Source: Candidatus Nanoarchaeia archaeon (GTDB lineage: Archaea; Nanobdellota; Nanobdellia; Woesearchaeales; ARS49). Taken from it: a stretch of DNA of 64,000 nt. Positions 32,902 through 51,834 of the stretch are shown here, piece by piece. The notes under the pieces were generated by a model. The model was not told where the DNA came from. It did not search any database and saw only the letters and a list, made by a program, of their open reading frames with translations. The stretch lies in contig JBGPSD010000004.1 of NCBI GenBank assembly GCA_041489925.1, forward strand, positions 25,143-89,142. Direction: 5' to 3'. Both the position numbers and the translations under genes were made by a program. Numbering within the stretch: position 1 is the first letter of the stretch; each line of letters starts with the position of its first letter.

Positions 32902-32957
32902 TGCATAATCTGATTCTCGACCACAACAATCATTATATACAAGCACCCCAAATTGAG

Positions 32958-33866: not shown

Positions 33867-33875
33867 ATGGGCGTG

Positions 33876-33892: not shown

Positions 33893-33911
33893 GTAATTTT
33901 CCAGGTAGCAC

Positions 33912-35444
33912 ATGAACCTAGACAAGCTCGCACAAAGCTTGCACCCGCTGGAACGCAAGGTGCTTCCGGTACTGGATAAGCACACAACGGTTCCTGCGAT
34001 ATGCACGGCCACAGGATTGAAAGATGTTGAGGTAGTCAGGGCTTTGCAGTGGCTTGAGAACCGCAAGGCAGTCAAGGTTGACATTTCTTCAAATGAGGTT
34101 GTTGTTCTGGACAAGAACGGCGAGCTGTACAAAAAGCAGGGATTGCCAGAGCGCAGGTTCCTGCAGGCGCTTGGCGACAAGGAGCTTGGCGTTGACAAAA
34201 TCTGCGACAAGGCAAAGCTTTCCCGCGACGAGCTTAACATCTGCCTCGGGCTGCTCAGGAGAAAGGCGCTTATCAACATTTCCCAGGACAAGGGGCTGAA
34301 GATAAAGCTCACAGACCAGGGAAAGGCTGCGCTGAAAAAAGAATTCCTTGAGGAATTATTCCTGAGAAAGGATTTCCCGCTTCACGTGAATGCCCTTGCG
34401 GCAGAGGAAAAGGCGACACTGCAGGCATTGCGCCAGAGAAAGGCGATTGTGCGCGTTGACCAGCAGAAAACAAAATCAGTCACACTTCTTCCAATGGGTA
34501 GGCAATTGCTCGAGCTTGGTGTCCGCGATGAAAAAATCATTGATTCACTTTCTCCGCAGATAATTTTGTCAGGCGAATGGAAGAAAAAGCCAATACGCAG
34601 GTACGATGTCGCAATACAGGTTCCGAAGATTTCAGGAGGAAGAAGGCATTTTGTCAGCGACGCAATCAACAACATGAAGCAGATATGGCGTGAAATGGGA
34701 TTCAGCGAGATGACTGGCTCGATTGTTCAGTCAGCATTCTGGAACATGGATGCACTGTATATCCCGCAGGACCATCCCGCAAGGGAAATGCAGGACACTT
34801 TCTACTTAAAGAAGCCGAACAAGGCATTGCTGCCCAAGGAATTTGTGAATGACATCAAGGCAGTGCATGAATACGGCGGAAAGACAGGAAGCACTGGCTG
34901 GCAGCAGCCCTGGAGCGAGGAAAAGGCAAAAGACCTTTTGTTAAGGACGCACAGCACAGTCCTCAGCGCACAGGCAATCTCGCGCCTTACCGAGGCAGAC
35001 CTGCCTGCAAAATTCTTCAGCGTTGTAAAAGTCTTCCGCAATGAAACCCTTGACTGGAAGCACTTGTTTGAGTTCTACCAGGTTGAGGGAATTGTTATTG
35101 ACCCAAAGGCAAACCTTTCAAATTTGCAGGGCTACCTTAAGGAATTTTTTGCAAAGCTCGGATTCAAGAATATCAGGCTCAGGCCGTCATATTTCCCATA
35201 CACAGAGCCCTCAATGGAAGTTGATGTCTGGCATCCTGTGAGAAATGAATGGGTTGAGCTTGGCGGCTCAGGAATTTTCCGGCCTGAAGTTGTTGAGCCA
35301 TTGCTTGGAAAGGCAGTGCCTGTGCTCGCATGGGGCTTGGGAATGGAGCGCATAATCACCGATTATTACAAAATCACAGACCTTCGCGATGTTTACAAGA
35401 ATGATGTCCAGCAATTGCGCGAAGCAAAGCTCTTGGTGAAATAA
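33912..35444 (+). CDS. pheS: Phenylalanine--tRNA ligase alpha subunit
   Basis: 510 aa with N-terminal winged-helix repeats and a C-terminal class II core (FRNETLDWKHLFEFYQVEG, PYTEPSMEVDV, GMERI). Confidence 0.9.
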   Translation: MNLDKLAQSLHPLERKVLPVLDKHTTVPAICTATGLKDVEVVRALQWLENRKAVKVDISSNEVVVLDKNGELYKKQGLPERRFLQALGDKELGVDKICDKAKLSRDELNICLGLLRRKALINISQDKGLKIKLTDQGKAALKKEFLEELFLRKDFPLHVNALAAEEKATLQALRQRKAIVRVDQQKTKSVTLLPMGRQLLELGVRDEKIIDSLSPQIILSGEWKKKPIRRYDVAIQVPKISGGRRHFVSDAINNMKQIWREMGFSEMTGSIVQSAFWNMDALYIPQDHPAREMQDTFYLKKPNKALLPKEFVNDIKAVHEYGGKTGSTGWQQPWSEEKAKDLLLRTHSTVLSAQAISRLTEADLPAKFFSVVKVFRNETLDWKHLFEFYQVEGIVIDPKANLSNLQGYLKEFFAKLGFKNIRLRPSYFPYTEPSMEVDVWHPVRNEWVELGGSGIFRPEVVEPLLGKAVPVLAWGLGMERIITDYYKITDLRDVYKNDVQQLREAKLLVK

Positions 35445-37097
35445 ATGTCAGCAATAACTGTCAACAAAAAGGAACTTTTGCACCTTGTTGGGAAAAAGCT
35501 GAGTGACAAGGAGATAGAAGACAGGCTTTCAATGATGGGCGCTCCTGTTGATGCTGTCCTTGAGACAGAACTTGAGGTTGATGTTTCTCCAAACAGGCCT
35601 GACTGGCTCAGCGAGCAGGGCTTGGCAAGGTCATTGAGCTCTTTTGTCGGTGCAAGGACAGGGCTGAAGCAGTACAAGGTGGCAAAAGAGCGCTTCCAGG
35701 TTGTTGTTGACAAGGCAGTGCACTCTGTCCGCCCTTACACTGCCTGCGCTGTTGTCAGGGGATTGAAGCTTGATGATGAAAAAATAAGGGAAATAATTCA
35801 GGTGCAGGAAAAACTGCACATGACTTTCTGCAGGAACCGCAAAAAAGCGGCAATTGGCATTTATCCGCTTGAAAAAATCCAGTTTCCAATCACTTACACT
35901 GCGAAAAAGCCCCAGGAAATTGTTTTTATCCCGCTTGAAAGCACCAGGGAAATGAATGCCAGCCAAATGCTTGCCCAGCATCCGACAGGAAGGGCTTATG
36001 CGCACTTGCTTGAAGGCCAGTCAAAGTTCCCTGTTTTTATTGACGGAAAAGGACAGGTGCTCAGCGTTCCTCCGATTATCAATTCGCAGCTTACTGGCAA
36101 GGTTGAGGCATCAACAAAGGATGTTTTCATTGAATGTTCTGGATTTGACCTGCGAATACTGAAGATTTTGCTCAACATCATTGTCACAATGCTTGCTGAC
36201 ATGGGCGGAAGGATTGTTTCTGTTGATGTGAAATATTCAAAGAAGATTACAACTCCTGATTTGTCTCCAAGAAAGATGAAAATCGACATTGACGCAATTA
36301 GCAGCCTTATCGGAATTGAATTGAAAGAAGCTGAGCTCAAGAAACTGCTCGAGAGGATGGGCTTTGGCTACCAGAACAAGCAGGTTTTGATTCCTGCCTG
36401 GCGCGCAGACATAATGCACCTTGTTGACATTGCAGAGGATGTTGCGATTGCATACGGCTACAACAACATAAAGCCTGAAATCCCGCAGGTCGCGACAATC
36501 GGCTCGCTTGACGCATTCAATGATTTCAAGGAAGTTGTTGCCAATTTCCTTGTCGGACTTGGAATGCTTGAGGCGCACACTTATCACATAACAAATGTTC
36601 CTGTGCAGACAAAGGCAATGAACTGCAATGCAGAAGTGATTGAGCTTGCGAATGCGCTCACGCCTGATTTCAATGCATTGCGCGCATGGATGCTTCCTTC
36701 CTTGATGGAAGTGCTTAAGGTCAACAAGATGAAGGATTATCCGCAGAAATTATTCACCATGGGAACTGTGTTCTCCCCAAATCCAAAGACTCCAACACAG
36801 GTTGAGGAAATCACAAAGATGGCAGTTGTTTCTGCGCAGCCAAAGGCAGACTACACTGACATAAGGCAGATTCTTGAGTATCTTTTCAGGGCTCTTGGGC
36901 TTAATGTTTCTTTTGAGGAAACAGAGCATTCAAGCTTTGTTGCGGGCAGGGTTGCTCAGGTAAAGCTTGACAACCACGCGATTGCAACAATCGGAGAAGT
37001 TCATCCGCAGGTCATAACTAACTTCGGATTGGAAATGCCTGTTGCTGCAGCAGAGATAAACCTGACAGAGTTATTCTTCCACCTGAAAAAAGTTTAA
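35445..37097 (+). CDS. pheT: Phenylalanine--tRNA ligase beta subunit
   Basis: 550 aa starting 1 nt after the pheS stop, with the archaeal B3/4-B5 architecture (VSPNRPDWLSEQGLARSL...). Confidence 0.9.
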   Translation: MSAITVNKKELLHLVGKKLSDKEIEDRLSMMGAPVDAVLETELEVDVSPNRPDWLSEQGLARSLSSFVGARTGLKQYKVAKERFQVVVDKAVHSVRPYTACAVVRGLKLDDEKIREIIQVQEKLHMTFCRNRKKAAIGIYPLEKIQFPITYTAKKPQEIVFIPLESTREMNASQMLAQHPTGRAYAHLLEGQSKFPVFIDGKGQVLSVPPIINSQLTGKVEASTKDVFIECSGFDLRILKILLNIIVTMLADMGGRIVSVDVKYSKKITTPDLSPRKMKIDIDAISSLIGIELKEAELKKLLERMGFGYQNKQVLIPAWRADIMHLVDIAEDVAIAYGYNNIKPEIPQVATIGSLDAFNDFKEVVANFLVGLGMLEAHTYHITNVPVQTKAMNCNAEVIELANALTPDFNALRAWMLPSLMEVLKVNKMKDYPQKLFTMGTVFSPNPKTPTQVEEITKMAVVSAQPKADYTDIRQILEYLFRALGLNVSFEETEHSSFVAGRVAQVKLDNHAIATIGEVHPQVITNFGLEMPVAAAEINLTELFFHLKKV

Positions 37098-37098
37098 C

Positions 37099-37140
37099 TT
37101 TTTTCAGACCAGCTGACTTCAGTCAGCGCTGCACGAAAAA
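37099..37140. terminator. Bidirectional terminator region: T6, hairpin gctgac-ttca-gtcagc, A5
   Basis: It lies between convergent pheT and rpl14e. T-run 37099-37104, 6-bp stem 37112-37127, and A-run 37136-37140 (a T-run on the minus strand). Confidence 0.45.
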
Positions 37141-37153
37141 GGTTTAATCCTTC

Positions 37154-37633
37154 TTACGCGAGCTTCTTTTGCACTGCAGGCTTTGGCGCAGCTGGTTTTG
37201 CCGCTGGCTTATTTTCTGCCGGTGCTTTTACTGCAGCAGTATTTGCGGGTGCTGCGGCTGGTGCCTTAGGAGCTGCTGCGTTGGCAGGAGCCTTTGCAGC
37301 CGCTGGCTTTGCCGCTGCTTTTGGAGCTGCAGTTTTTCCTGCGAGCTTGCTCTTTCTTGCCTTTCTCGGGCGAGCTGCCTTCTTTGGCTTTGTCTTTGGT
37401 GCAAATACGCCGTAGCCTGCCGTCTCAAATGCCTTTGCGACCTGCTCGTGGCTTGCCCCTTTTTTTATGTCAAGAACCTTGTCAAGCGGCTCGATGTGGA
37501 GTATGTTGCACTTTCTCCTCCTTGTCTCGCCGTCTATGAGCACGAAATTGTCATCAATAATATCAACTACAACGCATTTCAGCCCTGCGTCTCTTCCTGC
37601 TATTTTCACGCACAATCTTCCGATGTCAATCAT
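37154..37633 (-). CDS. rpl14e: Ribosomal protein L14e with a long Ala/Lys/Pro-rich C-terminal extension
   Basis: KOW-like N-terminus MIDIGRLCVKIAGRDAGLKCVVV... followed by ~75 aa of KPKKAARPRKARKSKLAGKTAAPKAAAKPAAAKAPANAAAPKAP... Confidence 0.85.
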   Translation of the reverse strand: MIDIGRLCVKIAGRDAGLKCVVVDIIDDNFVLIDGETRRRKCNILHIEPLDKVLDIKKGASHEQVAKAFETAGYGVFAPKTKPKKAARPRKARKSKLAGKTAAPKAAAKPAAAKAPANAAAPKAPAAAPANTAAVKAPAENKPAAKPAAPKPAVQKKLA

Positions 37634-37683
37634 TTTGTTCCTCCGCTCTCCTCAAGGGAATTCGTCACCGAGATTCCAAGAGC

Positions 37684-37950
37684 TTACATTCTTGCTTGTT
37701 CGATTATTTTGCGGCGCATGCATTGAGAACACAGCACGCCGCCATAAGGCCTTTCAGGCCTCTTCTGGCTTTTGGGCATTGAGTGCAAAGCGCGCGGAAT
37801 AACAGCCTTTGAACCGTGCAGCACAGAGCCGCAGCTGGCGCAGTGTGGCCTGCTTTTCTTGCGCACCTTGTAGTGTATGACGTTCCTTCCGCCAGGTGTG
37901 CGTACGAATACGCGCCTGAACGTCCTTGAACGCTTCTTGCCTTCAACCAT
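37684..37950 (-). CDS. rpl34e: Ribosomal protein L34e
   Basis: 88 aa with RTFRRVFVRTPGGR and zinc-ribbon cysteines CASCG...CSQC. Confidence 0.9.
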   Translation of the reverse strand: MVEGKKRSRTFRRVFVRTPGGRNVIHYKVRKKSRPHCASCGSVLHGSKAVIPRALHSMPKSQKRPERPYGGVLCSQCMRRKIIEQARM

Positions 37951-38026
37951 AAGCTGGAACTTCCAGAGGGGTATTTAAAAAGGTTTCGGAGTATATTTAA
38001 TAGGTCTGGTGCGTCCTGGGTTTTCT

Positions 38027-38866
38027 ATGGTTGTACTTGTGAGGTATGCTGAAATCGGGATAAAGGGCAAAAACCGTGATAAGTTTGAGCACGCCCTTGT
38101 CGCATGCATAGAGCGCAGCCTGCGCAAGCATGATGTGAAATTCTCAAAAGTCCGCAGGATGTACGGCAGGATTTGCATCGAGACAGATGACCCCTGCCCG
38201 TGCCTGAAGCGCGTTTTCGGAATTGCCTCTTTCTCATTCGCAATTCCAACTGGCAAAACCATTGAGGATGCATTTGCAGCATCAAAGCAGCTTGTCGCAA
38301 AGCTGTCTGAAAACGATTCTTTCCGTGTTTCCTGTCAGCGGCTTGACAAAAAATTCGCACTTAAGTCACAGGAGGTCTGTTCCAAGCTGGGTGAAATGCT
38401 AAGGGCTGTGACAAAGGCAAAAGTAAAAATGGAAAAGCCGACGGTTGATGTCGCCCTTGAAATAATTGAGGGCACAATTTATCTGCTCACCGGCAGGACA
38501 GAAGGCCCTGGCGGAATGCCCATCGGCTCTGAAGGCAAAGTCATTGCGCTTATCGAGGATGATTCTTCAGTCCTTGCAGCCCTGCTGATTATGAAGCGCG
38601 GCTGTGAAATTATTCCTGCAATGCTCAAGGAAACTGATTTGTCCCTGCTGAAAGAGTTTGCCTGCGGCCAGGAGATAAAGCCATGGCACATAAGCGCAAT
38701 TAATGAGATTGATGAAATCGCTGAAAAGCGCAAGGCATTGGCAGTTGTGATTAATGACACGTTTGAAAAAATACGCAGCATTGACCTGAAGTTGCTTGTG
38801 CTCAGGCCGCTTTCAGGATTAACAGGAGATGAAATTGCAAATGAGAGAAATGCAATGCAGTGTTGA
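38027..38866 (+). CDS. ThiI-like THUMP-domain protein with a degenerate PP-loop
   Basis: ATG at 38027. The N-terminus (VVLVRYAEIGIKGKNR) matches the ThiI ferredoxin-like/THUMP region. Where ThiI has LLSGGIDSPVAA..MKRG, this protein reads LIEDDSSVLAALLIMKRG. The RPLSGLTGDEI motif is retained. It is only ~280 aa. Confidence 0.65.
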   Translation: MVVLVRYAEIGIKGKNRDKFEHALVACIERSLRKHDVKFSKVRRMYGRICIETDDPCPCLKRVFGIASFSFAIPTGKTIEDAFAASKQLVAKLSENDSFRVSCQRLDKKFALKSQEVCSKLGEMLRAVTKAKVKMEKPTVDVALEIIEGTIYLLTGRTEGPGGMPIGSEGKVIALIEDDSSVLAALLIMKRGCEIIPAMLKETDLSLLKEFACGQEIKPWHISAINEIDEIAEKRKALAVVINDTFEKIRSIDLKLLVLRPLSGLTGDEIANERNAMQC

Positions 38867-39758
38867 AGCGCCTGAAAAGGCTGCCTGGGCAGGGGATGAC
38901 GTGCGATTTGTTGATAATTTTGAGAAAAAAGTCAGCAAGACCATAACGCAGTACAGGCTCCTGTCAAAAAATGAGAAAATAATTGTTGCAGTCAGCGGCG
39001 GAAAAGACAGCACTGCAATCCTGCACATCCTGAAAAAGCTCAGCTATCCTGTTGAGGCAGTAACTGTTGACGCCCACATCGGCTGTTACACAGAGGAGAA
39101 CCTGAAAAATCTTCGGGCGACGTGCAAACAGCTCAATGTGAAGCTGCACGAGGTGCCTTTCAGGAAAGTTTTTGGCGCCTCATTGTGCTACATCAGGGAT
39201 TATTTGAAGGAAAAAGGCCACAATTTCAAGTCCTGCACTGTCTGCGGCGTCCTGAGGCGGTATTTGCTGAACAAAAAGGCAAAAGAACTCAGGGCAGACA
39301 AGCTTGTCCTCGGCCACAATCTTGATGATGAAGCCCAGTCTGTGCTGATGAACTTGTTAAAGAACCGCCCGGAGCTAAACGCGAGGCTTGGGCCAAAGGT
39401 TGACAGTGTCAAGGATAGGAAATTTGTGCCGCGGGTAAAGCCTTTTTACAATATCCGCGAGGACGAGATTGTCCGTTACTCAAGGCTTATGGAGTTTCCT
39501 GTCAAGTACACGCGGTGCCCGTGCTCTGTTGAGGGCTTCAGGAGCGCTGTGAGGAATTTCCTGACTGATTTTGAGCAGGTTCAGCCGGGAATCAAGGAGA
39601 ATGTTGTCAAAAGATTTCTTGCACAGAGGGAAAAACTGCAGAAGCGCTATGCAAAAGGAAAGCATGCATTTTGCGTCCAATGCGGGGAATTCTCAAGCGG
39701 AAATGTCTGCAAGGCGTGCACTTTACTCGGGCTGCTGCACAAGCCTTTGAAGTCCTAG
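38829..39758 (+). CDS. TtuA/Ncs6-family PP-loop ATPase (tRNA 2-thiolation type)
   Basis: PP-loop AVSGGKDS, the CTVCG and GHNLDDEAQ motifs and a C-terminal CVQCG...CKAC zinc finger. It overlaps the ThiI-like gene by up to 38 nt. Confidence 0.75.
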   Translation: MKLQMREMQCSVEAPEKAAWAGDDVRFVDNFEKKVSKTITQYRLLSKNEKIIVAVSGGKDSTAILHILKKLSYPVEAVTVDAHIGCYTEENLKNLRATCKQLNVKLHEVPFRKVFGASLCYIRDYLKEKGHNFKSCTVCGVLRRYLLNKKAKELRADKLVLGHNLDDEAQSVLMNLLKNRPELNARLGPKVDSVKDRKFVPRVKPFYNIREDEIVRYSRLMEFPVKYTRCPCSVEGFRSAVRNFLTDFEQVQPGIKENVVKRFLAQREKLQKRYAKGKHAFCVQCGEFSSGNVCKACTLLGLLHKPLKS

Positions 39759-40433
39759 AAGCTCAGCGCGGGTTAGTTCCCTGTACCCTCCTGATGGCAA
39801 ATCCCTGAGGGAAATGTTTGCAATCTGGGTCCTCTTCAAACGCGCGACAGTGTAGCCGAGCTTTTTGAAAATAATCTTGACAATGTGCTTCATTCCCTCG
39901 TGCAGCGCAATCTCAATGTGTGACGGCGTGTGCAAAACCACTTTGTCAGTTATCACCAGGTGCCTTCCCAAGCGTATTCCCTTTTTCAGCCTGCGCACGT
40001 CCTTGCGGTCAATCTCCCCTGTCAATGTGATGTGATAAGTTTTTTCTGTCTCATACCGCGGGTGCATAAGCCTGTTCGCGAGCTCGCCGTCATTTGTCAT
40101 CAGGATTAACCCTTCTGCATCGCGGTCAAGCCTTCCGACAGGATACACGCGCGCGCCAGGCGGCACAAGCTGCATCACAGTTGGCCTTCCCTCAGGGTCA
40201 GAAACAGTGCTAACGACTCCGCGTGGCTTGTTGATGACAAAATATTTTTTTACCTCAGGCTTCCTGATTCTCGCGCCATCTACGCGTATATCGTCAAGCT
40301 CTATGTCTGCCTGGTCGCCCAGCTTGATAGTCTTGCCATTGACAATGACCTTTCCTGCAGCGATAATCTCCTCGCATTTTCTTCGCGAGGCAATCCCTGC
40401 CCTTGCCATTATTTTCTGCAATCTTTCTCGCAT
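39723..40433 (-). CDS. RsuA/RluB-family pseudouridine synthase with an S4 domain
   Basis: ATG at 40433 (MRERLQKIMARAGIASRRKCEEIIAAGKVIVNGK = S4 domain). The catalytic motif is VYPVGRLDRDAEGLILMTNDGELANRL. Confidence 0.85.
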   Translation of the reverse strand: MRERLQKIMARAGIASRRKCEEIIAAGKVIVNGKTIKLGDQADIELDDIRVDGARIRKPEVKKYFVINKPRGVVSTVSDPEGRPTVMQLVPPGARVYPVGRLDRDAEGLILMTNDGELANRLMHPRYETEKTYHITLTGEIDRKDVRRLKKGIRLGRHLVITDKVVLHTPSHIEIALHEGMKHIVKIIFKKLGYTVARLKRTQIANISLRDLPSGGYRELTRAELLGLQRLVQQPE

Positions 40434-40455
40434 AAGTGCTGATTTAATGCGAATG

Positions 40456-40464
40456 TTTATATAA
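40456..40464. promoter_or_regulatory. Single TATA box (tttatataa) equidistant from two divergent start codons
   Basis: The centre at ~40460 is 27 nt from the minus-strand ATG at 40433 and 27 nt from the plus-strand ATG at 40487. Confidence 0.5.
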
Positions 40465-40486
40465 TTATGGTCGGTAAACAAAATTC

Positions 40487-41074
40487 ATGATTGACATTGT
40501 GTTTCCTGAGAAAAACGAGCAGGAATTTTTTGAAATGGCAAAAAAGCTCGGCTACAAGGGGCTTGTGCTTGTTTATCCCTCGCCTGCTGCTGCGAAAAGC
40601 GCTCCCAAGGCGCCGGCAGGGCTGAGTGTCAGGACTGCTGTTCTTGCTGAGCCAAAAAAGGCATTTCAGCTGAGAAGCCAGGGCATCCTGACTTTTGTGC
40701 AGTGCTCTGACCAGGATAGGGCAGTGCTTGAGCGCGGCTCTGCAGATGTGATTTTCGGAGCAGAAAGCACAATGCCAAAGGATTACATGCACCAGCGCGG
40801 CTCAGGATTAAACCATGTGATGTGTGAGCTCGCTAAAAAGAACAAGGTAGCGATTGGATTCAGCTTTGCAGGCATACTCGCGTCAAGCCAGCGCTCGCAA
40901 TTGCTCGGCAGGATATCGCAGAACATAATGCTGTGCAGGAAATACAAAGTCAGTACAGTCATCGCTTCATTTGCAAAAGACCCGTGGAAAATGCGCTCTC
41001 CGCACGACTTGCAGGCATTCTTTACTGTGCTTGGAATGCATCCTTCTGAGGCAAAAAGCGCATTAAAATTCTAG
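40487..41074 (+). CDS. rnp3: RNase P protein component 3 (Rpp30 homolog)
   Basis: 195 aa. The MIDIVFPEK.. start and TIM-barrel-like alternating pattern (DVIFGAE, LNHVMCELAKKNKVAIGFSF, VIASFAKDPWKMRSPHDL) resemble archaeal Rpp30. Recognised from memory. Confidence 0.65.
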   Translation: MIDIVFPEKNEQEFFEMAKKLGYKGLVLVYPSPAAAKSAPKAPAGLSVRTAVLAEPKKAFQLRSQGILTFVQCSDQDRAVLERGSADVIFGAESTMPKDYMHQRGSGLNHVMCELAKKNKVAIGFSFAGILASSQRSQLLGRISQNIMLCRKYKVSTVIASFAKDPWKMRSPHDLQAFFTVLGMHPSEAKSALKF

Positions 41075-41457
41075 CTTGAGGTTTCAAGAACCGCAGCCAC
41101 TTCGCCAATTCCTGACTGCCTTGCGCACTCACCGGGGTTTTCTGAATTTATGCATTCAGCAATCGCCTTGCACTCAGGAAGCTCTGGCTGTTCACTGCAG
41201 GCGATTGGCTCTTCCCTGGGCCCTGTTACTGATTCAACACATTTCTTCAAATCTTCTATGCCTTTTTCGCCAGGCGCCATATTTTCCTGGCATTTCAGGA
41301 GCCGTTTTTCTTCCCGTATGCACGCACTTTTGTCAGGGGTGTTTTCACATTCCTTGATTCTGGCTTCGTCAAGCTTTGGCTGGCTTTGCCAATATAGAAT
41401 TGCTACTGCAACAACCACCACAAGAATGATTACCGCGATTAAAATGCCTCTTTTCAT
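41071..41457 (-). CDS. Membrane-anchored small Cys-rich protein (8 Cys)
   Basis: MKRGILIAVIILVVVVAVAILYW anchor followed by a charged domain with spaced cysteines. TATA (41481-41486) lies about 26 nt upstream. Confidence 0.6.
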   Translation of the reverse strand: MKRGILIAVIILVVVVAVAILYWQSQPKLDEARIKECENTPDKSACIREEKRLLKCQENMAPGEKGIEDLKKCVESVTGPREEPIACSEQPELPECKAIAECINSENPGECARQSGIGEVAAVLETSS

Positions 41458-41500
41458 GGCTTAAAAAAACGCCCTTTGGTTTATAAGCCTTTTCATCATG

Positions 41501-41548
41501 TCGGAAACCGCTTGTTAAGAATTTTAGAGGATACTAAGCGGTTTCCGA
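41501..41548. promoter_or_regulatory. Perfect 13-bp inverted repeat tcggaaaccgctt-N22-aagcggtttccga in the divergent promoter region
   Basis: Read directly; arms at 41501-41513 and 41536-41548. A second 7-bp inverted repeat caagaac-aaggg-gttcttg is at 41556-41574. Both lie upstream of TATA tttaaata at 41583-41590. Confidence 0.5.
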
Positions 41549-41582
41549 GCATGCTCAAGAACAAGGGGTTCTTGACATAAAG

Positions 41583-41590
41583 TTTAAATA
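41583..41590 (+). promoter_or_regulatory. TATA box of the large surface-protein cluster (leaderless first gene)
   Basis: tttaaata is centred 27 nt upstream of the ATG at 41614. Confidence 0.5.
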
Positions 41591-41613
41591 CTCTCGTCTG
41601 TAAAATCCTCTGC

Positions 41614-43551
41614 ATGGGAAAAAAGAGGTTGTTGGCGCTAATTACATTTCTGGCTCTCCTAGGCGCATCTGCAGCAGCAGGCGCTACTGTTGCAGGATAT
41701 GCTGAAGAATACATTTATACAAACCCCGGATGCATCCCTTTTTGTTTTGGAAATAACAAAACATACGACCTTGGCGGAACATTCCAGATTTTTGAAGCGA
41801 CAAAAGTGGGTGGCCACTATAACCATGAGGCAGAGTGGTTTGACGGCGGACTTGCGCTCTTTGCTGACAATGTCCAAACAGCGACCTGGTCATTTTTGGG
41901 AGCTGCAAACAGCGCTCTGCAGACATATTACCATGATTTTAACGGCGCATATGCAGACCGCGTTGTTGCCTGCGGCTGCAGTTATGACTACCACCAGGGT
42001 ACCCACCCTTTTTCAATACGATTCAACAGGAATACCTTTGTCAGAAGGACAAATGTATTAGACGACCCAGACGAGCCGCTCGGTGAGGCTGGAAGCTTCT
42101 TTACTAAGTTTTCAAACCTGACCAATGATTCAGGATGGAGGATAAGAGTGGATGCTGTCCGCCCAGGCTCAATGGTTTGGCTTGGCGATGAGGAAAGCTA
42201 CACCACGCATGAAACCTCTGATGTGACTGCTAAAGTGTATGGCTGCGCAGACACAAACCAAAACCAAATCTGCGATGTTAGAGAGCCGAGCTTCATGTTA
42301 TGCAATGATGTGGGCGGCGACTGGTACAATGACTGGTGTTGCGGAACAAACTTCACAGAAGGATTTGTGAAATCAGTGCCGAATCTGACAACCCAGGTGT
42401 GCGCTCAATATGCATATCTTGGTAGCGCGTGTGTGCGTTGGATGACTGTTGTCGGTAACAAGAGCATTAATGCCATTTGCGGAAAGACTTCTGAAGGAAA
42501 ATGGAAGTGGGCTCCGCTTGATGAGTCTGGTGAGGTTTTTGACCTGCTCGGCTGGCCAAATGCGTCTGTTGTTTCTGATGGAACAAATCTTTACAGCTGC
42601 GGAAACCAGATTGAAAACTATACCGTGCCTGATGATGTTTACGGAGTGTGCGTTAAAACAGAGAGGCAAAGAGTGTGCACGCCTTCGTGGTTTGGTCAGT
42701 CATGTTCTTATCAGGATGTTTGCGTGAAAAAAGAGTACTTGTGGAGAAGCACAGTGCTTATCAACAGCCCTGCAACAACCCTGTTTGGGCAATTCATCAG
42801 TGTCGCTGTCGGCAATGCAAGGCATATGTATTCCTGCAAGGATAAGGTTGTTTACGAATGCTCTGGCAAGACAGGGTCTTTCTCAACAAACAATGGCGCT
42901 GAGATGGGCACAACAAACCCGAGCTTTACTAATGAAACATTTTACTGCGCATCTGACGGTGACTGGACAAAAGACCTTGACATAAAGGACAATGAGAGCT
43001 GCGAGGCAGCAGGATTTTCATGGACAGGCTCGCGCTGCTGCAGCGAGGCAGATGACCCTGCAGAATACTACAATGACCCCAAGTTCCCAAATGCAACAGG
43101 CGGCTGCTGGAACAAGATGTATGTCAGGTCAGGCGATTACGCAGTTACTGACAGGATTCTCAACTACAATGGCAAATTCTTCGGCTGCAGACTCAGCCTG
43201 ATAAATGATGCAATCCTGCTTAATCTCAAGGATTACCACGTGGATAACCTGCTTATTGACAACAGCATAACCCCCTGCGGCATGGTGCTTATGGATGCCC
43301 AGCCAGGGGGAATGCCCCACGCAAAGTGCCAGCCAAATGGCCAGTGGATGTTTACTGACGAGCCTGGCGGAGTAATCAATAAGAGCATAAAGTGGGCAGG
43401 CCTTGTCGGATCGGGAATAGCATTGTCAGGCTGTTGCGCTCCAGACCAGTGCTGGAATGGCACAAAATGCCAGAAGCTCGGTACTTATTACAGGCTTGGC
43501 GAAGAGGGTTTCATTTGCAAGATGCTGCCGTCAACTTCAATGCCGCCATAA
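41614..43551 (+). CDS. Large secreted Cys/Trp-rich protein (645 aa to the first stop) of unknown family
   Basis: Sec signal peptide MGKKRLLALITFLALLGASAAAG. It has more than 40 Cys and many N-x-S/T sequons. The reading frame stays open and motif-bearing for 56 codons past the TAA at 43549-43551. Confidence 0.7.
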   Translation: MGKKRLLALITFLALLGASAAAGATVAGYAEEYIYTNPGCIPFCFGNNKTYDLGGTFQIFEATKVGGHYNHEAEWFDGGLALFADNVQTATWSFLGAANSALQTYYHDFNGAYADRVVACGCSYDYHQGTHPFSIRFNRNTFVRRTNVLDDPDEPLGEAGSFFTKFSNLTNDSGWRIRVDAVRPGSMVWLGDEESYTTHETSDVTAKVYGCADTNQNQICDVREPSFMLCNDVGGDWYNDWCCGTNFTEGFVKSVPNLTTQVCAQYAYLGSACVRWMTVVGNKSINAICGKTSEGKWKWAPLDESGEVFDLLGWPNASVVSDGTNLYSCGNQIENYTVPDDVYGVCVKTERQRVCTPSWFGQSCSYQDVCVKKEYLWRSTVLINSPATTLFGQFISVAVGNARHMYSCKDKVVYECSGKTGSFSTNNGAEMGTTNPSFTNETFYCASDGDWTKDLDIKDNESCEAAGFSWTGSRCCSEADDPAEYYNDPKFPNATGGCWNKMYVRSGDYAVTDRILNYNGKFFGCRLSLINDAILLNLKDYHVDNLLIDNSITPCGMVLMDAQPGGMPHAKCQPNGQWMFTDEPGGVINKSIKWAGLVGSGIALSGCCAPDQCWNGTKCQKLGTYYRLGEEGFICKMLPSTSMPP

Positions 43552-43722
43552 GAACAGCCGCCATCAGAACAATGTCAGCAGAACCACGACTGCCCTGCAG
43601 GGCAATACTGCACAAATCACGAGTGCGTCAGTGGCCCGCTTCCAGATACCTGCGCTAACAATAATGCGTGTCCTTCAGGATATCACTGCCAACAACACGA
43701 ATGTGTTGAAGAGCCAGTATAA
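43552..43722 (+). other. In-frame open extension after the TAA stop, encoding two Cys-motif repeats (possible readthrough, recent nonsense mutation or assembly variant)
   Basis: Translation is EQPPSEQCQQNHDCPAGQYCTNHECVSGPLPDTCANNNACPSGYHCQQHECVEEPV then TAA. It contains no ATG/GTG/TTG start. It ends 9 nt before the next gene's start, matching the tight spacing of the rest of the cluster. Confidence 0.5.
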
Positions 43723-43731
43723 AAAAGAGGA

Positions 43732-44931
43732 ATGATGGGAATGAAATGGGTTTGGGCATTGGTATTTTTGATACTTGCAGTTCTGCCATTTGTTGCCGCA
43801 GAAGACCAGGCTGACTGGTTCGCAATTCCGATACGCTACTCTTGGGACCTGTCAATGGGTGGCTCGTGCGAAAACAGCACCCAGTGCCTCATACACCTGC
43901 TCGGAAACGACACTTATGACGGCGACATCCAAAGATATTTCCAGCAGTTGGAAACACCCTGGCTCGGTCCGAGGTGTGCAAACAATTCGCAGTACATACT
44001 TGATTATTCCTGTGATGCAGGAAACTGGACAACACGCACAAAATATCTTGCGCTTTACCTTTTGAAATATGCTGAGGCAAATTCAGCAGGCGCATTCACA
44101 CTTTACTGCGACACTTACGAGCGCGTGCTGAACCAGTTCAGTTATTATGTGAAGAACGTGCTTGTGTCTGATTATTTCGGAGATGCCTGCGTCATTCAGG
44201 GAAAGACTGTTCCCTGCATTAACAAAATCTGCGTGCTGAGAACGCCCCAGGTTGTTGCAATCGGGACCACAATCAATGGCCCAATCAATGACCCTGCCCG
44301 CTCATTCCTGCTTGCGCTGAATGAAAGCACTTCATTGTGCGACGGCCACGATGCTGAGCACGGAACTGATTTCACAAAATGTGACGCTGAAAAGCCGGTG
44401 TGGTATAACCCCTCATTGCAGGCGGTTGTCTGGCTTTCAGAAGGCTCCCTTGCCCCGCCAACAGCAGACACCAGGGCAAAAATCACAGCGCCAATGGGCA
44501 GCATGAGCTCTTATGTGATGAATGTCCTGCACAATGAGGCAAATCCCGGCATGAATTTCATTTATTTCCCGCGCACAAGATTGTTCAACCACATTTATGT
44601 TGCGCAGAACGGCCCGCGTGGGATATTTGGCTTCCTTGAGGCAGGCTTGCGCCCCGAGTACACGCTCTTGCCTGACAATGAGTCAGAGCCAATCCCGCTT
44701 GACTACATCGGTGTGCGTTACACAGGAATAGAGCTGTATGAACACAGCAACCTCACCTGCCTGAATCTCATCAAGAGGTATGACAGAAATGCATTCTGCG
44801 AAAACCAGACAGCAACAGGATTCAATGTAATCGCAAGGCACCGCTGCGAGCCTGGCTATGAGGATCGATGCAATGGCGCAAGCCCGATTGTTGGCGTGTG
44901 GCCTGCCTTGGCAGGAAAGCTGAGGCCATGA
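43732..44931 (+). CDS. Secreted Cys-rich protein (399 aa) of unknown family
   Basis: Signal peptide MMGMKWVWALVFLILAVLPFVAA, multiple sequons and cysteines, and SD agagga upstream. Confidence 0.7.
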   Translation: MMGMKWVWALVFLILAVLPFVAAEDQADWFAIPIRYSWDLSMGGSCENSTQCLIHLLGNDTYDGDIQRYFQQLETPWLGPRCANNSQYILDYSCDAGNWTTRTKYLALYLLKYAEANSAGAFTLYCDTYERVLNQFSYYVKNVLVSDYFGDACVIQGKTVPCINKICVLRTPQVVAIGTTINGPINDPARSFLLALNESTSLCDGHDAEHGTDFTKCDAEKPVWYNPSLQAVVWLSEGSLAPPTADTRAKITAPMGSMSSYVMNVLHNEANPGMNFIYFPRTRLFNHIYVAQNGPRGIFGFLEAGLRPEYTLLPDNESEPIPLDYIGVRYTGIELYEHSNLTCLNLIKRYDRNAFCENQTATGFNVIARHRCEPGYEDRCNGASPIVGVWPALAGKLRP

Positions 44932-46244
44932 AAATGAAAGCGCAGCTTACGCTGATGATGCTAATGGGGCTTGTAATGCTTATCGCGGTTGGAATTGTTT
45001 TGTACATCGGCGGGTCTTCAATGACAAAAAGCACAGAGCGCGGAGCTGAGCAGCAGCGTTTGAGCCAGTCTGCAATCCAGACAATCAGGGATTATGTCCA
45101 CTCGTGCCTTGACGCAACGACAACTGCTGCATTGGACCTTATCGGAAAGCAGGGCGGAGTCCTCTACAGGGCGCAGGGCGGCTTGACTCCTGATATCCTG
45201 CCTTCAGACCCGCAGGGCGGGCGCCATGTTATTTATGACGGGCTGAATGTCAGCTACCTCATCCGCAGGCCTGGCCAGAATGTTGGCAGGCTTTACTTTG
45301 CAGAGCCCCCTGATTATCCATGGGTCACGTTCCCGTATGTCCTTAACAAATCAGACATGTCAGTCATGAGGACAACATACACTGGCTACTTTGGCATATC
45401 GCTTTTGCCCCCGCTTTTCAAGCCAGGCAAGGACTCCATCCAGGAACAGCTTGAATCATACATCAGCTTTAACCTTCCGCGCTGCACAGACTGGAGCTCA
45501 TTCAAGGGGCTTTCAATCACTGCTGACAAGCCAAATGTCTCTGTAATAATCGCAGAGAACAGGACGCAGATTGAAACCGAGCAGTATTTCTCAGTGGTTG
45601 CGAACTGGCAGGTGAACATCACTGACAGTTCCACAGGTTCCAACACCACACTTGACATGTTCTCGCGCGGTTATCCTGTCCACCTCGCAAAATTCTATGT
45701 TTTCGTGCAGAGCCTGATTTACAGCGAGATAAATGATTCGTCGTTTGACCCGCTCTCGCAAAGCTCGCCTGCAAGCCCCGTTTTTGTTTTCAAGGACATT
45801 TTCAAGAATCCTGAGGATGAGGGCGCTGATGACCTGATTATTGTAAAGGATGCAGAGTCAGAGTTGCGCGGCAAGCCATTGGAATTCAGGATACTGAGGC
45901 AGAACCGCTATCCTGCGCTCTTCTGGATAAACCAGTCTGACATCAACAGCTATGCGTTTTACAGGATGGGCGAATGCCCAGCAGAAGCGCAGTCAATATT
46001 CCTCGAAGGCAACCAGCTCAAAATCACTTATGCAACAGACTCTCCATATGAATGGTCTGGCACGCTTTCAGCAATTGACCCTGATGAGGACAATGTCAGC
46101 TACAGCATCAAGCCTGTGGACGGAAAAATAGACGCCCCGCCAAATGTCGCGCTGTTCATGCTGTATGTTTATGCCTCTGACGGCGGAAACACAAAGGATT
46201 ACCAGATTGTAAACCTGACACTGGCAGGTTGTCCTGAAGAATGA
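44928..46244 (+). CDS. Pilin-like protein with a class III signal peptide (438 aa)
   Basis: Internal ATG at 44928, overlapping the upstream stop as ATGA. The N-terminus is MKMKAQLTLMMLMGLVMLIAVGIVLYIGG. Confidence 0.6.
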   Translation: MKMKAQLTLMMLMGLVMLIAVGIVLYIGGSSMTKSTERGAEQQRLSQSAIQTIRDYVHSCLDATTTAALDLIGKQGGVLYRAQGGLTPDILPSDPQGGRHVIYDGLNVSYLIRRPGQNVGRLYFAEPPDYPWVTFPYVLNKSDMSVMRTTYTGYFGISLLPPLFKPGKDSIQEQLESYISFNLPRCTDWSSFKGLSITADKPNVSVIIAENRTQIETEQYFSVVANWQVNITDSSTGSNTTLDMFSRGYPVHLAKFYVFVQSLIYSEINDSSFDPLSQSSPASPVFVFKDIFKNPEDEGADDLIIVKDAESELRGKPLEFRILRQNRYPALFWINQSDINSYAFYRMGECPAEAQSIFLEGNQLKITYATDSPYEWSGTLSAIDPDEDNVSYSIKPVDGKIDAPPNVALFMLYVYASDGGNTKDYQIVNLTLAGCPEE

Positions 46245-49200
46245 GAAAACTTTTGCTTATCGCGGTGGCTGCAGCGTTTTTCTACATGGCACTCTTTTCC
46301 CAGCAGGCATCCGGCCAGGAGCAGGGATGCTGCTGCGAGCCGATTTATCACCAGGGTGTCATTGAGGAGCGCTCTGCGTGCGAGGCAAAAGGATATAACT
46401 TCACAGCAGAGCTTCCTGCTGAGGTTGGTGAAAGCTGCGACCCAATCTGTGATTCAAAATTCGGCATTCCAATCATCATAACCCCGCCTGCTGACTGCGA
46501 GTCCCCGTTTTTCAACCCTGCTCCAATGAGTGTGGTTGCAAAGGCAGTCAAGGGAAAGAAGCAGATCAGGCTAATCTACACTGTTCCGTGTCCGATGCAG
46601 GCAATCGCTGTTAACATCTCGCGCTGCACAGGTGATGATTGCGAGGACTTTTCCCAGATTGCCCAGATGTCGCCCACAGGGGTTTACACTGACGCATCAC
46701 CTGAGCTTCTCTGGAACACCCCTTACACTTACATGGTTGTCATCACCTCGCGGATTTCAGGCGCTTCAGAGCCAGGTTATGCAATTGGCAATGCTGGTGA
46801 CATTGAATGCTGGTATCAGGGATTTGACAAGTTCTGCATTTCAGATTACTACTACACCCGCTTCCAGGAATATTTGTCAATGTACGGCTACTATGACACC
46901 CCTGCAGATGCATTCGCAGGCGATTTACAGTCTTCTGTTGAGCTGACATTTGCTGACAAGTTTAATACCGGGAGATACTGCAATGACATCAACCTGCTCA
47001 GCGACACTGGCTTAAGCTGCCCTGAAGGAAAGAAGTGCGTCTCAGGAAAGCTCGGGCTTGCGTGCATCACTCCAACACTCTGCGAAGGCGGCGGATTGTT
47101 CGGGCTTTACTCATCACCTGAAACCTGCGAGGGAACAGAATCTGCGAAGAAGTACTGCTTCTTTGACCGCTCGCACAGTTCTGTTGACAGGTGCTACTCT
47201 TGCAGCCCGCAGATGAGCTGCGCTGACTACAGGTCAGAGGGCGCGTGCAACCGCGACAACTGCTTTGCAGGCAACTGCTCATGGAAGCCTGTTTTCCCTG
47301 ACATCGGAATAGGAGTCTGTGTTGACAGCAGGTTCCCAAACTGCGCGTGGTGTACAAAGCAGGGCACAGACGGGCTTGAGAATGCAGATGCTTACAATGA
47401 AGTGTTTGACCAGTGCACTGCAAGGAAATCAATAGCGCTCACTGTTCCAAATTATCTTTGCACATTTGACAAGAACGCCCAGGAAAGCAATGGCTGTGAC
47501 GCCACTGCCTGCATGGATTACAATGACACTGACTGCGGCTCGCCTGCAGGAGGCATTCAGCTTAATCCTGACAACTCGCTTGAGGTTGGAAGCACTGACC
47601 CGTGCAGCATAAAGGTCTGCCAGCTTCAGTCTGGCATTGGCTGCCTGAAGAATGCTGACGGAAACGGGCTCTTTGACTGCGGCATAAAATCTGATGACCG
47701 AAGGCAGTGCGAGCTTGACCATTATCCGCCGAACACGACTTTTGTCGCAACATCTTACAAGCCAAACCGCATGGACTGGCTCGAGGCAAGGATGCTTGAC
47801 CAGGTGAATGGCACTGCAGATGCGTATTACATGGAGGGCAAGCCAGGTTACAGGCTGAGGGTTTGCGTTGACAGCGAAGAAACACCCTGCGCTGAAGCCA
47901 CAACATTTGCCGAGACAAATCTTTCCTTGCTGAACTTCAATGACCTTTACCTGCAGGCAGGCAGGGATGTGCTTGCCACGATGTCCGACGGCGAGAACAC
48001 GCTGAAATATTATGGCGTTGACCGCAGCAACAACCCAGAGGTTGTCAAGGAAATGACAATACTTGCCTGCGACAAATGCCAGGGGCCGAAAGTGCTTGGC
48101 ATCAATGTCACCCCGAGCAAAAGCTATGAAGGGAAGTTTTACACAATATCCGAAATTCCAGTAATAACTGTCGCGTTCAATGAGCTTTCAACCCTGACCA
48201 CTGCCACGCTGTCAATCGGCAACAAGGTGATGCCTGTAAACGTCATGCCTCTTGGAGGGGCGAATTATGATTACACTTTTATCCCGATAAACACGCTTGA
48301 GGATGGCGAATACCTGCTGGCATTTAATGCAAAGGACAGCAATGGGCGGCTTATGGACTTGCCTGGCTCTGCAATTATTGTTGTTGACACAACCCCAGGG
48401 GATGTTACAATAATTCCGCGTGACGGCACTGTCATCAATGAAACATCAGTTCAAATCTCTTTCACCTTCAATCAGCCTCCTGTCAGCCTGCTTGGCGCCT
48501 ACCTTGACAATGAAGTCTGGATTAGCAAGTATGCCACGAAGAAAAAAATAATGAACCTGACATCAAGCCTTGTGGAAACAGAGCCAAATAAGGTCTATGA
48601 CACCACTGTCGATGAGCTTTACGGCGGAAAGAAGAACATCAGGGTTTATGCAGAGGACTTGGCAGGCAATCCTGTAATAGGAAAGTCAAGCTTCTGGATT
48701 AACAGCGGCCCATTGCAGATTAGGATGCGCGAGCCGAGCTGGGGGGTAAGCGCAACATACGTGTTTGACATCGCGATTGACACATCAATAGCTGCCACCT
48801 GCAAGTATGCATATGACCTGCCTGCGCCTGTTCCTGTTGCGGCGTTTAATGACTTCCTTGCCCCATTCCCAGAGGAAACAGAGGTTGTCCACAAGATTCC
48901 CGGATTTAACAAGATTTCTTTCGGCGACCTGAAAGCGCACAAGCTGAGTGTTTATTGCAAGGCAGGGACCAATATATCTGTGGAGACCTTTGAGCTACGC
49001 GTTGACCCAAGCCCGCCAACCATCAAGTCTGCTTACGCAGACCCTGCTGTCATAATCGAGCGGAGGACTCCAAGCGCAGACATATTCACAACATACCTGA
49101 AGGCTCAGACAGATGATGACGGCTTCTGCAGGTACAGCCTCGAGAACAGGCCGTTCATACTTATGGAAGGGCTGTTCTCAGGCTTTGACGAATACCCCAA

Positions 49201-51319
49201 GAAATCTCACAGCGCTGAAATAAACGTAACTAAAGACATGACGTCATACACTTATTATGTTGCCTGCAAGAACACTGCAGAGCTGCCTTCTGCAACAGTG
49301 CCTGTCAAATTCAGCGTTGACACAACAATACCATTTGCGATAACAAGCCTCACCCCGCCATACTCCAACTCAACAGAATTCAGCATCGCCCTGCAGACAA
49401 ACAAGCGCGCATTATGCTACATTGCAGAAGACCCTGAAGTCACTCCCACTTTCATGGGATTGATGGGTCATTCGCACGTCTACCCTGTTGAAGTCAATAA
49501 GTCAGGCAATTATTCCTGGTATGTGAAGTGCAGCACTGGCGCAGGAAGCGAGGTTGCTGATATCTGGATTCCTGTGCTTGTTGACACAACCCCGCCCGTA
49601 ATGCTGTACGTGAATGACAGTTCCAACCTGGCTGAGACTCCTGATGTCTCTTACTTCCTTGACCAGCTGATGGTAAAATTCCTTGGAATTGACAATGAGA
49701 CTGCTGTTAATGCGTATTATTACCGCCTGCAGACTTTCTTCGCGAACGCCACAATCCTCAACTGGACTCTCAGCACAAACACAAACGGCACAGCATTTTA
49801 TGTGACTGGGTTGAACCTCACAGATGGCAACAAGTACAGGTTCGAGGTCTATCCTGTGAACATTATCGGGCTGCAGGGCGGTGCAAAGCAGAGCGATGGT
49901 GTGACAATTGACTCAACCAAGAAGCCTGCTGACTGCGTCAATGACATTCAGGATGGAAATGAAACAGACCTTGACTGCGGAGGACCATGCCCTGGCTGCA
50001 ATGATGGCGGCAAGTGCAATGCAGACACAGACTGCCTGTCAGGATTCTGCAACAGTGGACTCTGCGCACTGGTCGGCTGCGATGATGTTGCAAAGAATGG
50101 CAATGAAACAGATGTTGACTGCGGCGGAGGAGTGTGCCTGCCGTGCGGAATGAACAAGAGCTGCGTGCAGGATGCTGACTGCGCGAGCGGCAGCTGCAAT
50201 TATGGCACGTGCGGCGACCCGATACCATGCTCAGACGGCTTGCTCACAGGAACAGAATCAGACATTGACTGCGGAGGCTCATGCCCGAACAAGTGCGGCG
50301 AGGGAAAGAACTGCCAGGTGCCTTCTGACTGCGCAGGCGCACTGCTTTGCATTGACGAAACCTGCCAGGGATTGCTCGACAGCGACAATGACGGCGTTGA
50401 GGACGCAAAGGACAAGTGCCCGAACACGCCCACCGGTGAAACAGTTGATGAAAACGGCTGCTCTGCTTCGCAAAGGTTCACCTGCGGCGATGAGATATCT
50501 GACGGCTGGAGGATAAAGTACTTTGGCAGCGTGCTTTGCGATGGAGACGGCGCCCCTGATGCAGACCCTGACAAGGACGGCCTTACAAATGTTGAGGAAT
50601 ACAGGGCGCGCACTGACCCGGCAAACGCAGACACTGATGGCGATGGATGGAATGACAAGGTTGAGCTTGACAAGGGCTATGACCCTCTTGACCCTGCTTC
50701 GCACCCGCCAAGCAAGGTGCGCATTTTGCTCTGGACTCTGCTCATACTTCTTTTGCTTGCAGTTCTGGGCGTCGGAGGCTGGCTCGGCTACCAGTATTAC
50801 ATGGAGAAGAGGCTTGAAGCCCTTCCGCCTTCAATACCCGCAAAGCCAGAAGCCCCTGAGCGCAAGTACAGGAAGTGGCCTTCAATAATTGAAAAGCTGC
50901 GCAGGATAGCGCGCAAGGAAGAGCCTGGTGTCATTGACCGCGACTGGGTATCGCTCGCAGAGCTTTCAGAGCGCCTGAAGGAAGGGAAAGTGCACGTGCA
51001 CAAGGATGTCTTTGAACGCCTTGAGGGCCTGATAAGCGGAAAGATTCCCAAAGAGGAGACAGAAAGCATCCTTGAGGCAATCCAGAAGGCGCCAAAGGCA
51101 TTCAAGCTTTTGCGCAGGATTTCATTTGAGAAGCTCTCCCCTGCTGAAAAGGAGTTTGTGCGCAAGCGCCTTGCATTCCTGAAGTCAGGAAAGCTCACAT
51201 CAGCAGAGCTTGAGGAAGTGCTCACAAAGCTGCGTATAACCGCGGCATATTACAGGACTCACAGGGCAGAGCTTGAGCGCGAGCTTGAGGAATGGCTTGA
51301 TGAGCGGAGGCACAAATGA
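46241..51319 (+). CDS. Giant type-I membrane surface protein (1692 aa): signal peptide, Cys-rich region, at least 5 Ig-like modules, 3 Cys-knot repeats, TSP3-like Ca-binding repeats, TM anchor and a charged cytoplasmic tail
   Basis: ATGA overlap with the upstream gene. Recurrent VDTTP-type module boundaries are IVVDTTPGD, RVDPSPPTI, SVDTTIPFA, LVDTTPPVM and TIDSTKKPA. Three repeats of NGNETD.DCGG.C..C....C...DC..G.C....C are present. DxDxDG motifs are DSDNDGVED, DPDKDGLTN and DTDGDGWND. The TM segment ILLWTLLILLLLAVLGVGGWLGY is followed by ~170 aa of K/E/R-rich tail. Confidence 0.8.
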   Translation: MRKLLLIAVAAAFFYMALFSQQASGQEQGCCCEPIYHQGVIEERSACEAKGYNFTAELPAEVGESCDPICDSKFGIPIIITPPADCESPFFNPAPMSVVAKAVKGKKQIRLIYTVPCPMQAIAVNISRCTGDDCEDFSQIAQMSPTGVYTDASPELLWNTPYTYMVVITSRISGASEPGYAIGNAGDIECWYQGFDKFCISDYYYTRFQEYLSMYGYYDTPADAFAGDLQSSVELTFADKFNTGRYCNDINLLSDTGLSCPEGKKCVSGKLGLACITPTLCEGGGLFGLYSSPETCEGTESAKKYCFFDRSHSSVDRCYSCSPQMSCADYRSEGACNRDNCFAGNCSWKPVFPDIGIGVCVDSRFPNCAWCTKQGTDGLENADAYNEVFDQCTARKSIALTVPNYLCTFDKNAQESNGCDATACMDYNDTDCGSPAGGIQLNPDNSLEVGSTDPCSIKVCQLQSGIGCLKNADGNGLFDCGIKSDDRRQCELDHYPPNTTFVATSYKPNRMDWLEARMLDQVNGTADAYYMEGKPGYRLRVCVDSEETPCAEATTFAETNLSLLNFNDLYLQAGRDVLATMSDGENTLKYYGVDRSNNPEVVKEMTILACDKCQGPKVLGINVTPSKSYEGKFYTISEIPVITVAFNELSTLTTATLSIGNKVMPVNVMPLGGANYDYTFIPINTLEDGEYLLAFNAKDSNGRLMDLPGSAIIVVDTTPGDVTIIPRDGTVINETSVQISFTFNQPPVSLLGAYLDNEVWISKYATKKKIMNLTSSLVETEPNKVYDTTVDELYGGKKNIRVYAEDLAGNPVIGKSSFWINSGPLQIRMREPSWGVSATYVFDIAIDTSIAATCKYAYDLPAPVPVAAFNDFLAPFPEETEVVHKIPGFNKISFGDLKAHKLSVYCKAGTNISVETFELRVDPSPPTIKSAYADPAVIIERRTPSADIFTTYLKAQTDDDGFCRYSLENRPFILMEGLFSGFDEYPKKSHSAEINVTKDMTSYTYYVACKNTAELPSATVPVKFSVDTTIPFAITSLTPPYSNSTEFSIALQTNKRALCYIAEDPEVTPTFMGLMGHSHVYPVEVNKSGNYSWYVKCSTGAGSEVADIWIPVLVDTTPPVMLYVNDSSNLAETPDVSYFLDQLMVKFLGIDNETAVNAYYYRLQTFFANATILNWTLSTNTNGTAFYVTGLNLTDGNKYRFEVYPVNIIGLQGGAKQSDGVTIDSTKKPADCVNDIQDGNETDLDCGGPCPGCNDGGKCNADTDCLSGFCNSGLCALVGCDDVAKNGNETDVDCGGGVCLPCGMNKSCVQDADCASGSCNYGTCGDPIPCSDGLLTGTESDIDCGGSCPNKCGEGKNCQVPSDCAGALLCIDETCQGLLDSDNDGVEDAKDKCPNTPTGETVDENGCSASQRFTCGDEISDGWRIKYFGSVLCDGDGAPDADPDKDGLTNVEEYRARTDPANADTDGDGWNDKVELDKGYDPLDPASHPPSKVRILLWTLLILLLLAVLGVGGWLGYQYYMEKRLEALPPSIPAKPEAPERKYRKWPSIIEKLRRIARKEEPGVIDRDWVSLAELSERLKEGKVHVHKDVFERLEGLISGKIPKEETESILEAIQKAPKAFKLLRRISFEKLSPAEKEFVRKRLAFLKSGKLTSAELEEVLTKLRITAAYYRTHRAELERELEEWLDERRHK

Positions 51320-51834
51320 ATAATCGTGCGCAAATGATAGGCCAGGTTTTCATCTTCATCATAGCAGGGCTTGTCTTCGTGCTTATCCTTGGCTATGGCT
51401 ACAAGGCAATAATGGGCTTAATGGAAAAAGGCGAGAAGGTCCAGCTGATTGACTTCCGCAATAAGCTTGACTCCTCAATCAACATCATAAAAAGGGATTA
51501 TGGGAGCGTGCAGCGCGTTGACCTTATTGTGCCTTCAAATACAGATGAAGTCTGCTTTGCGACTTCTGACAAGAATGATGTGCGCTCGGGCGAATGGGAA
51601 AAGAATTTCCAGGAAGAGCGTCCATTGTTTTACGGCGCTTGGGTAACAGGCACTGAGAATGTCTTCTTTGTGCCAAAACAGTCCACTCCAATACCTGAAA
51701 AGGATATTGTCGTTGACCCTGAAGGCAAGGGCTATCTGTGCGTCAATGCTGCAGGAGGCAGGATAAGCCTGCGCATGGAGGGCATTGGAAGCAAGGTGCT
51801 GATAACAGAATGGCCTGTGCAGGGGGCAGAATGA
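51316..51834 (+). CDS. Pilin-like protein with a class III signal peptide (172 aa)
   Basis: SD ggagg and an ATGA overlap with the giant gene. The N-terminus is MNNRAQMIGQVFIFIIAGLVFVLILG. Confidence 0.6.
   Translation: MNNRAQMIGQVFIFIIAGLVFVLILGYGYKAIMGLMEKGEKVQLIDFRNKLDSSINIIKRDYGSVQRVDLIVPSNTDEVCFATSDKNDVRSGEWEKNFQEERPLFYGAWVTGTENVFFVPKQSTPIPEKDIVVDPEGKGYLCVNAAGGRISLRMEGIGSKVLITEWPVQGAE

Follow-up and report, generated by a model that had tools for sequence, protein, structure and literature searches.

Locus and interrupted reading frame

The DNA analysed here, referred to as the window, is a stretch of 64,000 nucleotides from the assembly of a Candidatus Nanoarchaeia archaeon (GCA_041489925.1, contig JBGPSD010000004.1, positions 25,143 to 89,142 of the forward strand), and coordinates are counted from its first letter. 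It carries an archaeal marker, the gene for the p30 subunit of RNase P (40487-41074), and, at 41614-55823, a co-directional and tightly packed gene cluster whose products are secreted or cysteine-rich and have essentially no Pfam domains. The products measure 645/702, 399, ~438-458, 1692, ~166, ~360, 160, ~155 and 632 aa, and the only Pfam matches among them are both weak: one to the bacterial TSP3 repeat in the 1692-aa protein, the other, precomputed, to APH in the 632-aa protein. Related MAGs share part of the gene order, including at minimum the first two genes.

The first gene of the cluster is read as an ORF of 645 aa on the plus strand (41614-43551), which is terminated by a TAA at 43549-51. 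Translation could nevertheless continue in the same frame (frame 1) through 56 open codons (43552-43719; translation EQPPSEQCQQNHDCPAGQYCTNHECVSGPLPDTCANNNACPSGYHCQQHECVEEPV) up to a second TAA at 43720-22, and neither ATG, GTG nor TTG occurs in frame across 43552-43719. The ATG of the next gene, at 43732, lies 9 nt beyond the full-length ORF but 180 nt beyond the short one. The remaining junctions of the cluster measure -4, -4, 14, -4, -1 and 13 nt, and a gap of 180 nt would be unique. Both the stop followed by an open extension without a start codon and the exceptional spacing that results from it had been described in an earlier, sequence-only reading of this DNA, and the coordinates bear that description out. 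A scan of 43300-43900 for promoters and terminators, of the bacterial type only, found nothing, making the 180 nt unlike a real intergenic regulatory region. The features of the locus are as follows.

41614..43548, plus strand: protein body (645 codons, secreted, cysteine-rich), with an N-terminal hydrophobic segment resembling a signal peptide and numerous NxS/T sequons, but without a Pfam domain
43543..43572, plus strand: tandem 15-nt duplication in a Pro/Ser/Glu-rich linker, CCGCCATAAGAACAG (43543-57) followed by CCGCCATCAGAACAA (43558-72)
43549..43551, plus strand: TAA, the premature stop, with the variant at base 43550: A in the window, C in the intact version (TCA, Ser646)
43552..43719, plus strand: stranded tail of 56 codons, made up of the last part of the linker plus two Cys modules that together resemble one DUF7107-like disulfide domain
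43720..43722, plus strand: native stop TAA of the full-length 702-aa ORF, which in a sister assembly (L019) is called as a gene at 2804-4912, equivalent to 41614-43722 of the window
43732..44931, plus strand: next cluster gene (399 aa, secreted), with a GAGG Shine-Dalgarno-like motif upstream, 9 nt past the native stop

The premature stop thus lies in the first of two 15-nt repeat units, which encode PP*EQ and PPSEQ, respectively. Since the second unit has TCA at the matching position, the same ancestry (TCA) is predicted for the stop codon.

Two further observations concern the neighbouring genes. In a Woesearchaeota MAG (L011, JAFGCE010000085.1, positions 3535-4300), the C-terminal 'GCCAPDQCWNG' region of gene 1 runs in frame into a homolog of the 399-aa gene ('...YTLFCDTYENILN...'), and this fusion suggests that the two neighbouring genes may work together. 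The start of the third gene is placed differently by different calls: at 44868 in the ORF list, which creates a 64-nt overlap with the previous gene, at 44928 in L019, which gives a 4-nt overlap of the ATGA type, and at 44898 in a further assembly (L021/L025). The shorter start, at 44928, seems the more likely one.

The cysteine-rich tail and its relatives

The extension contains two copies of a cysteine motif, as the sequence-only reading had proposed, at 43573-43626 and 43651-43704. Both are spaced C-x4-(D/A)C-x2-G-x2-C-x4-C, and the tail (which includes CPAGQYCTNHECVSGPLPDTCANNNACPSGYHCQQHECVEEPV) carries eight regularly spaced Cys residues in all. The same reading had linked these copies to motifs in the giant 1692-aa protein of the cluster. 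Three loosely similar motifs do occur there, at aa 1259, 1308 and 1358, but they read C-x4-DC rather than C-x3-DC, and comparison of the tail with the giant protein by BLASTP was not significant (E ~0.5), so that the resemblance is at the level of the motif only.

When the tail is compared in isolation with Pfam DUF7107 (PF23416), a family without known function, it scores 28.2 bits over 47/48 profile positions and passes the cut-off of 24.6, whereas the full-length proteins P0036 and P0002 score 16.2 and 17.9 bits, respectively, both below this gathering threshold. Membership of DUF7107 is therefore borderline, and the match may reflect the spacing of the Cys residues more than common ancestry. 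A match to the Dickkopf N-terminal cysteine-rich region (PF04706) is weaker than that to DUF7107. Nevertheless, the DUF7107 match, together with homology to the tails at the C-terminus of the closest orthologs, indicates that the tail is real coding sequence and not a chance open frame. Against orthologs, dN/dS of the tail is 0.40-0.59 versus ~0.30 for the body, and all of the tail Cys residues are conserved; on these comparisons, the tail is evidently under purifying selection within the clade.

Among the closest orthologs (P0001/L001, P0035/L003, P0034 and P0037), body and two-module tail form one continuous ORF, and in the next clade (P0002/L002 and L016) a three-module tail is likewise uninterrupted, so that the ORF is continuous in 6/6 tail-bearing close orthologs (L001, L003, P0034, P0037, L002 and L016). 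The linker of L001 and L003 is 6 nt shorter than that of the window and has no stop, and a stop between body and tail is absent from all relatives compared. The sequence-only reading had named, as evidence that would tell against it, orthologs that end at this position and lack the motif-coding region; the close motif-bearing orthologs instead read through. Several homologs at greater distance (P0003, P0007 and P0010) terminate only a few residues from the conserved Cys of the '...GFxC' motif ahead of the linker. No hidden Cys-coding frames were found past the stops of L004, L005 and L007, which argues against a readthrough architecture shared by the whole family. With 0, 2 or 3 modules among homologs, the tail is a variable accessory module. 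One of these orthologs, L016, came from a scan of metagenome DNA for which the conserved beginning of the next gene served as query and which yielded three loci; the other two, L017 and L018, were chance matches.

At the native C-terminus (43714-43722), the window reads GAG CCA GTA TAA (..EEPV*), while L001 and L003 read GAG TAA GCA TAA (..EE*A*), a tandem stop. The stop at the natural end is thus displaced by two codons between the window and these two relatives.

Where an organism name is attached to them, homologs of the protein occur only in MAGs of the Woesearchaeota/Nanoarchaeia type, apart from three whose source is labelled 'uncultured Methanosarcinales archaeon'. These three records (L003, CAYGVI010000003.1; L008, CAYYLN010000041.1; L009, CAYGYR010000001.1) carry close homologs, and L003 is ~92% identical to the window in DNA. 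Because the gene is otherwise confined to Woesearchaeota/Nanoarchaeia MAGs, the Methanosarcinales label is probably wrong. Exact-product look-ups for the 645-aa product and for a TTG-started ORF of 1104 aa gave no record, and genes next to them were used in their place. An AlphaFold model of the ortholog P0001 is mostly beta, with a mean pLDDT of 70.4; residues 613-640, corresponding to the linker, fall below 50, and the tail is modelled as separate small beta-hairpins with pLDDT ~66-72. A search of PDB structures with this model gave no match at E <= 0.001 and only weak ones of the jelly-roll/CBM-like kind.

An intact allele and the origin of the stop

A protein of 702 aa from another assembly (P0036, GCA_041480225.1) consists of the 645 aa of the window's product, a Ser residue and the 56-aa tail, and it falls in the same 90% identity cluster as the 645-aa protein. 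At the DNA level, the sister contig L019 (JBGOZN010000001.1) aligns with window positions 38811-53722 over 14,912 bp with 0 gaps and 1 mismatch. That sole mismatch is at 43550, where L019 has C (TCA, Ser) and the window has A (TAA). The tails of the window and of the intact allele are 100% identical; there has been no time since the mutation for change to accumulate, and conservation of the tail is therefore no evidence that it continues to be translated.

The stop itself recurs in JGI 3300052988 contig Ga0534151_0000455 (L021/L025), which matches window positions 28632-46008 and also carries TAA, a recurrence to be read with the limit that the assemblies compared may share reads or samples. 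At 31072, L021 has C where the window has T, a synonymous TAC/TAT (Tyr) difference in the ORF at 30668-31189, and this difference marks it as a separately built consensus that shares the stop. The Logan per-run assembly of SRR29604878 covers 38827-43549 and 43551-46009 in two contigs at 100% identity, and only base 43550 is missing. Judging from the behaviour of the assembler and the points at which contigs break, this split would correspond to a de Bruijn bubble with ample reads for each of the two alleles. The remaining overlaps, of 18,016 bp (L020), 6,414 bp (L022) and 5,610 bp (L023), are 100% identical to the window. The sample and assembly accessions had no hits in a literature search. 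The nonsense difference at 43550 and the synonymous one at 31072 are the only two across the assemblies compared, and by this measure the population appears nearly clonal.

Several independent assemblies break in the same two places. Near 38747-38827, L022 ends at 38747, L023 at 38776 and the L019 contig at 38811, while L028 starts at 38827; near 45985-46009, L020 begins at 45985, and the ends of L021 and L026 fall at 46008 and 46009, respectively. The contig of the window is continuous across both sites, and the shared breaks probably stem from additional variation among strains or from branching of the assembly graph in this population.

The sequence-only reading had offered three accounts of the stop: readthrough giving short and long isoforms, a nonsense mutation of very recent date or a variant within the population, and an error in sequencing. 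The second is the one that stands, given TCA in an otherwise identical assembly, TAA in a second consensus and the Logan split; programmed readthrough finds neither a stop among orthologs nor an RNA structure, and a sequencing error has become unlikely. It is therefore with considerable confidence that the TAA at 43549-51 is interpreted as a genuine nonsense single-nucleotide variant of very recent origin (C to A at 43550, turning TCA, Ser646, into TAA) that segregates in a nearly clonal, Woesearchaeota-type (DPANN) population.

It is unlikely that the TAA allele is kept as useful, either through an adaptive switch-off of the Cys-knot domain that alters interaction with a host or virus, or through low-level near-cognate readthrough of UAA that yields a major tail-less and a minor tailed form. 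If true, such low-level readthrough would make this the first described case in Archaea of an extension produced by reading through UAA.

Marginally less probable still is an error of sequencing or of the assembly consensus, in which the organism truly has TCA and the window's assembly shows a spurious A at 43550. The window departs from an otherwise identical assembly by a single base, and the change is a C-to-A transversion, which is a typical artefact of oxidative damage. However, the same A is present in the second consensus, L021, which is distinct from the window at 31072, and the Logan graph splits exactly at 43550, which requires substantial reads for each allele. Misassembly of the 15-nt repeat cannot have created the A, since C stands at the corresponding position of the neighbouring unit.

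Selection for loss of the tail, with the nonsense allele rising because it alters, for example, attachment to a host or permits escape from a virus or other binder, rather than being neutral or slightly harmful, is very unlikely as a specific account. The stop falls neatly in the linker between domains, the tail that it removes varies between 0, 2 and 3 modules among homologs, and one of only two observed differences is nonsense, compared with 4.3% expected per random coding substitution. Such a nonsense change among two differences is mildly unusual (p ~0.08) and leaves room for selection or artefact, but two variants carry no statistical power. Furthermore, adaptive loss is a sub-case of the nonsense-variant explanation rather than a true alternative to it.

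Programmed readthrough, in which the TAA would be decoded at a useful rate to give a short isoform of 645 aa and a long one of 702 aa, has the lowest probability of these readings and is extremely unlikely. Known readthrough extensions include the A1 extension of the Q-beta coat protein, retroviral gag-pol and archaeal Sec/Pyl recoding, the last of which uses UGA and UAG, not UAA. What the locus shares with programmed extensions is an in-frame stop with an open, coding-quality extension after it: the 56 codons are coding and selected, and they end 9 nt before the next gene. It differs from them in that the stop is unconserved, the codon is UAA instead of UGA or UAG, no stimulatory element was found and the sister genome encodes Ser. 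None of the orthologs, nor the sister assembly, has this stop; at this position they carry a sense codon or lack a codon altogether, and a very recent mutation with zero other changes fully explains the intact tail. Purifying selection on the tail is equally expected for a very young stop and does not discriminate between the two. The RNA from 43540 to 43660 (121 nt) is predicted to fold at -25.8 kcal/mol versus a mean of -28.0 for shuffled sequences (z = +0.67), with no stable structure, although this is a weak test, as archaeal UAA readthrough signals are undefined. Scans of the window for tRNA genes and Rfam elements were empty, which leaves it without a suppressor tRNA or a known recoding element, and TAAG is an ordinary terminator that ends 5 ORFs in the window. 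According to one published source, readthrough recoding in Archaea has been shown unequivocally only for insertion of Sec and Pyl (PMC8037382).

Reassignment of TAA throughout the genome, which the sequence-only reading had rightly thought unlikely, is excluded: the 52 long ORFs in the window end in TGA (23), TAA (22) or TAG (7), and TAA also forms the native end of this gene.

Predicted consequences of the nonsense allele

The intact allele encodes a secreted, cysteine-rich protein of 702 aa, the last ~50 residues of which form a small, disulfide-rich and DUF7107-like double module, and the C-to-A transversion places TAA inside the Pro/Ser/Glu-rich linker that joins body and tail. Under the nonsense-variant explanation, ribosomes would then terminate 57 codons early and produce a protein of 645 aa that lacks only the accessory tail. 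Because many natural homologs end at the same linker, the truncated protein can probably still fold and function. The tail-coding 168 nt would become an untranslated spacer that is too young to have decayed. The downstream gene would keep its own GAGG ribosome-binding site, while the terminating ribosome would stand 180 instead of 9 nt away from it, and coupling by termination and reinitiation may be weakened or lost. Background readthrough of UAA by near-cognate tRNAs may occur here, as at any stop, and nothing points to programming.

The nonsense polymorphism itself is an ordinary event. As in other segregating nonsense polymorphisms of microbes, one base change turns a sense codon into a stop, an intact allele exists alongside it within one nearly clonal population, the codons downstream remain perfect and a dispensable terminal domain is lost. 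The present case is unusual only in its setting, an uncharacterised, secreted and cysteine-rich protein of a DPANN archaeon. For annotation, the locus is a 702-aa gene with a premature-stop allele, rather than a 645-aa gene with a 180-nt spacer behind it, or a site of recoding. The variant represents micro-diversity at a domain boundary of such a protein, and it may offer a small lead toward surface-protein variation in episymbiotic archaea.
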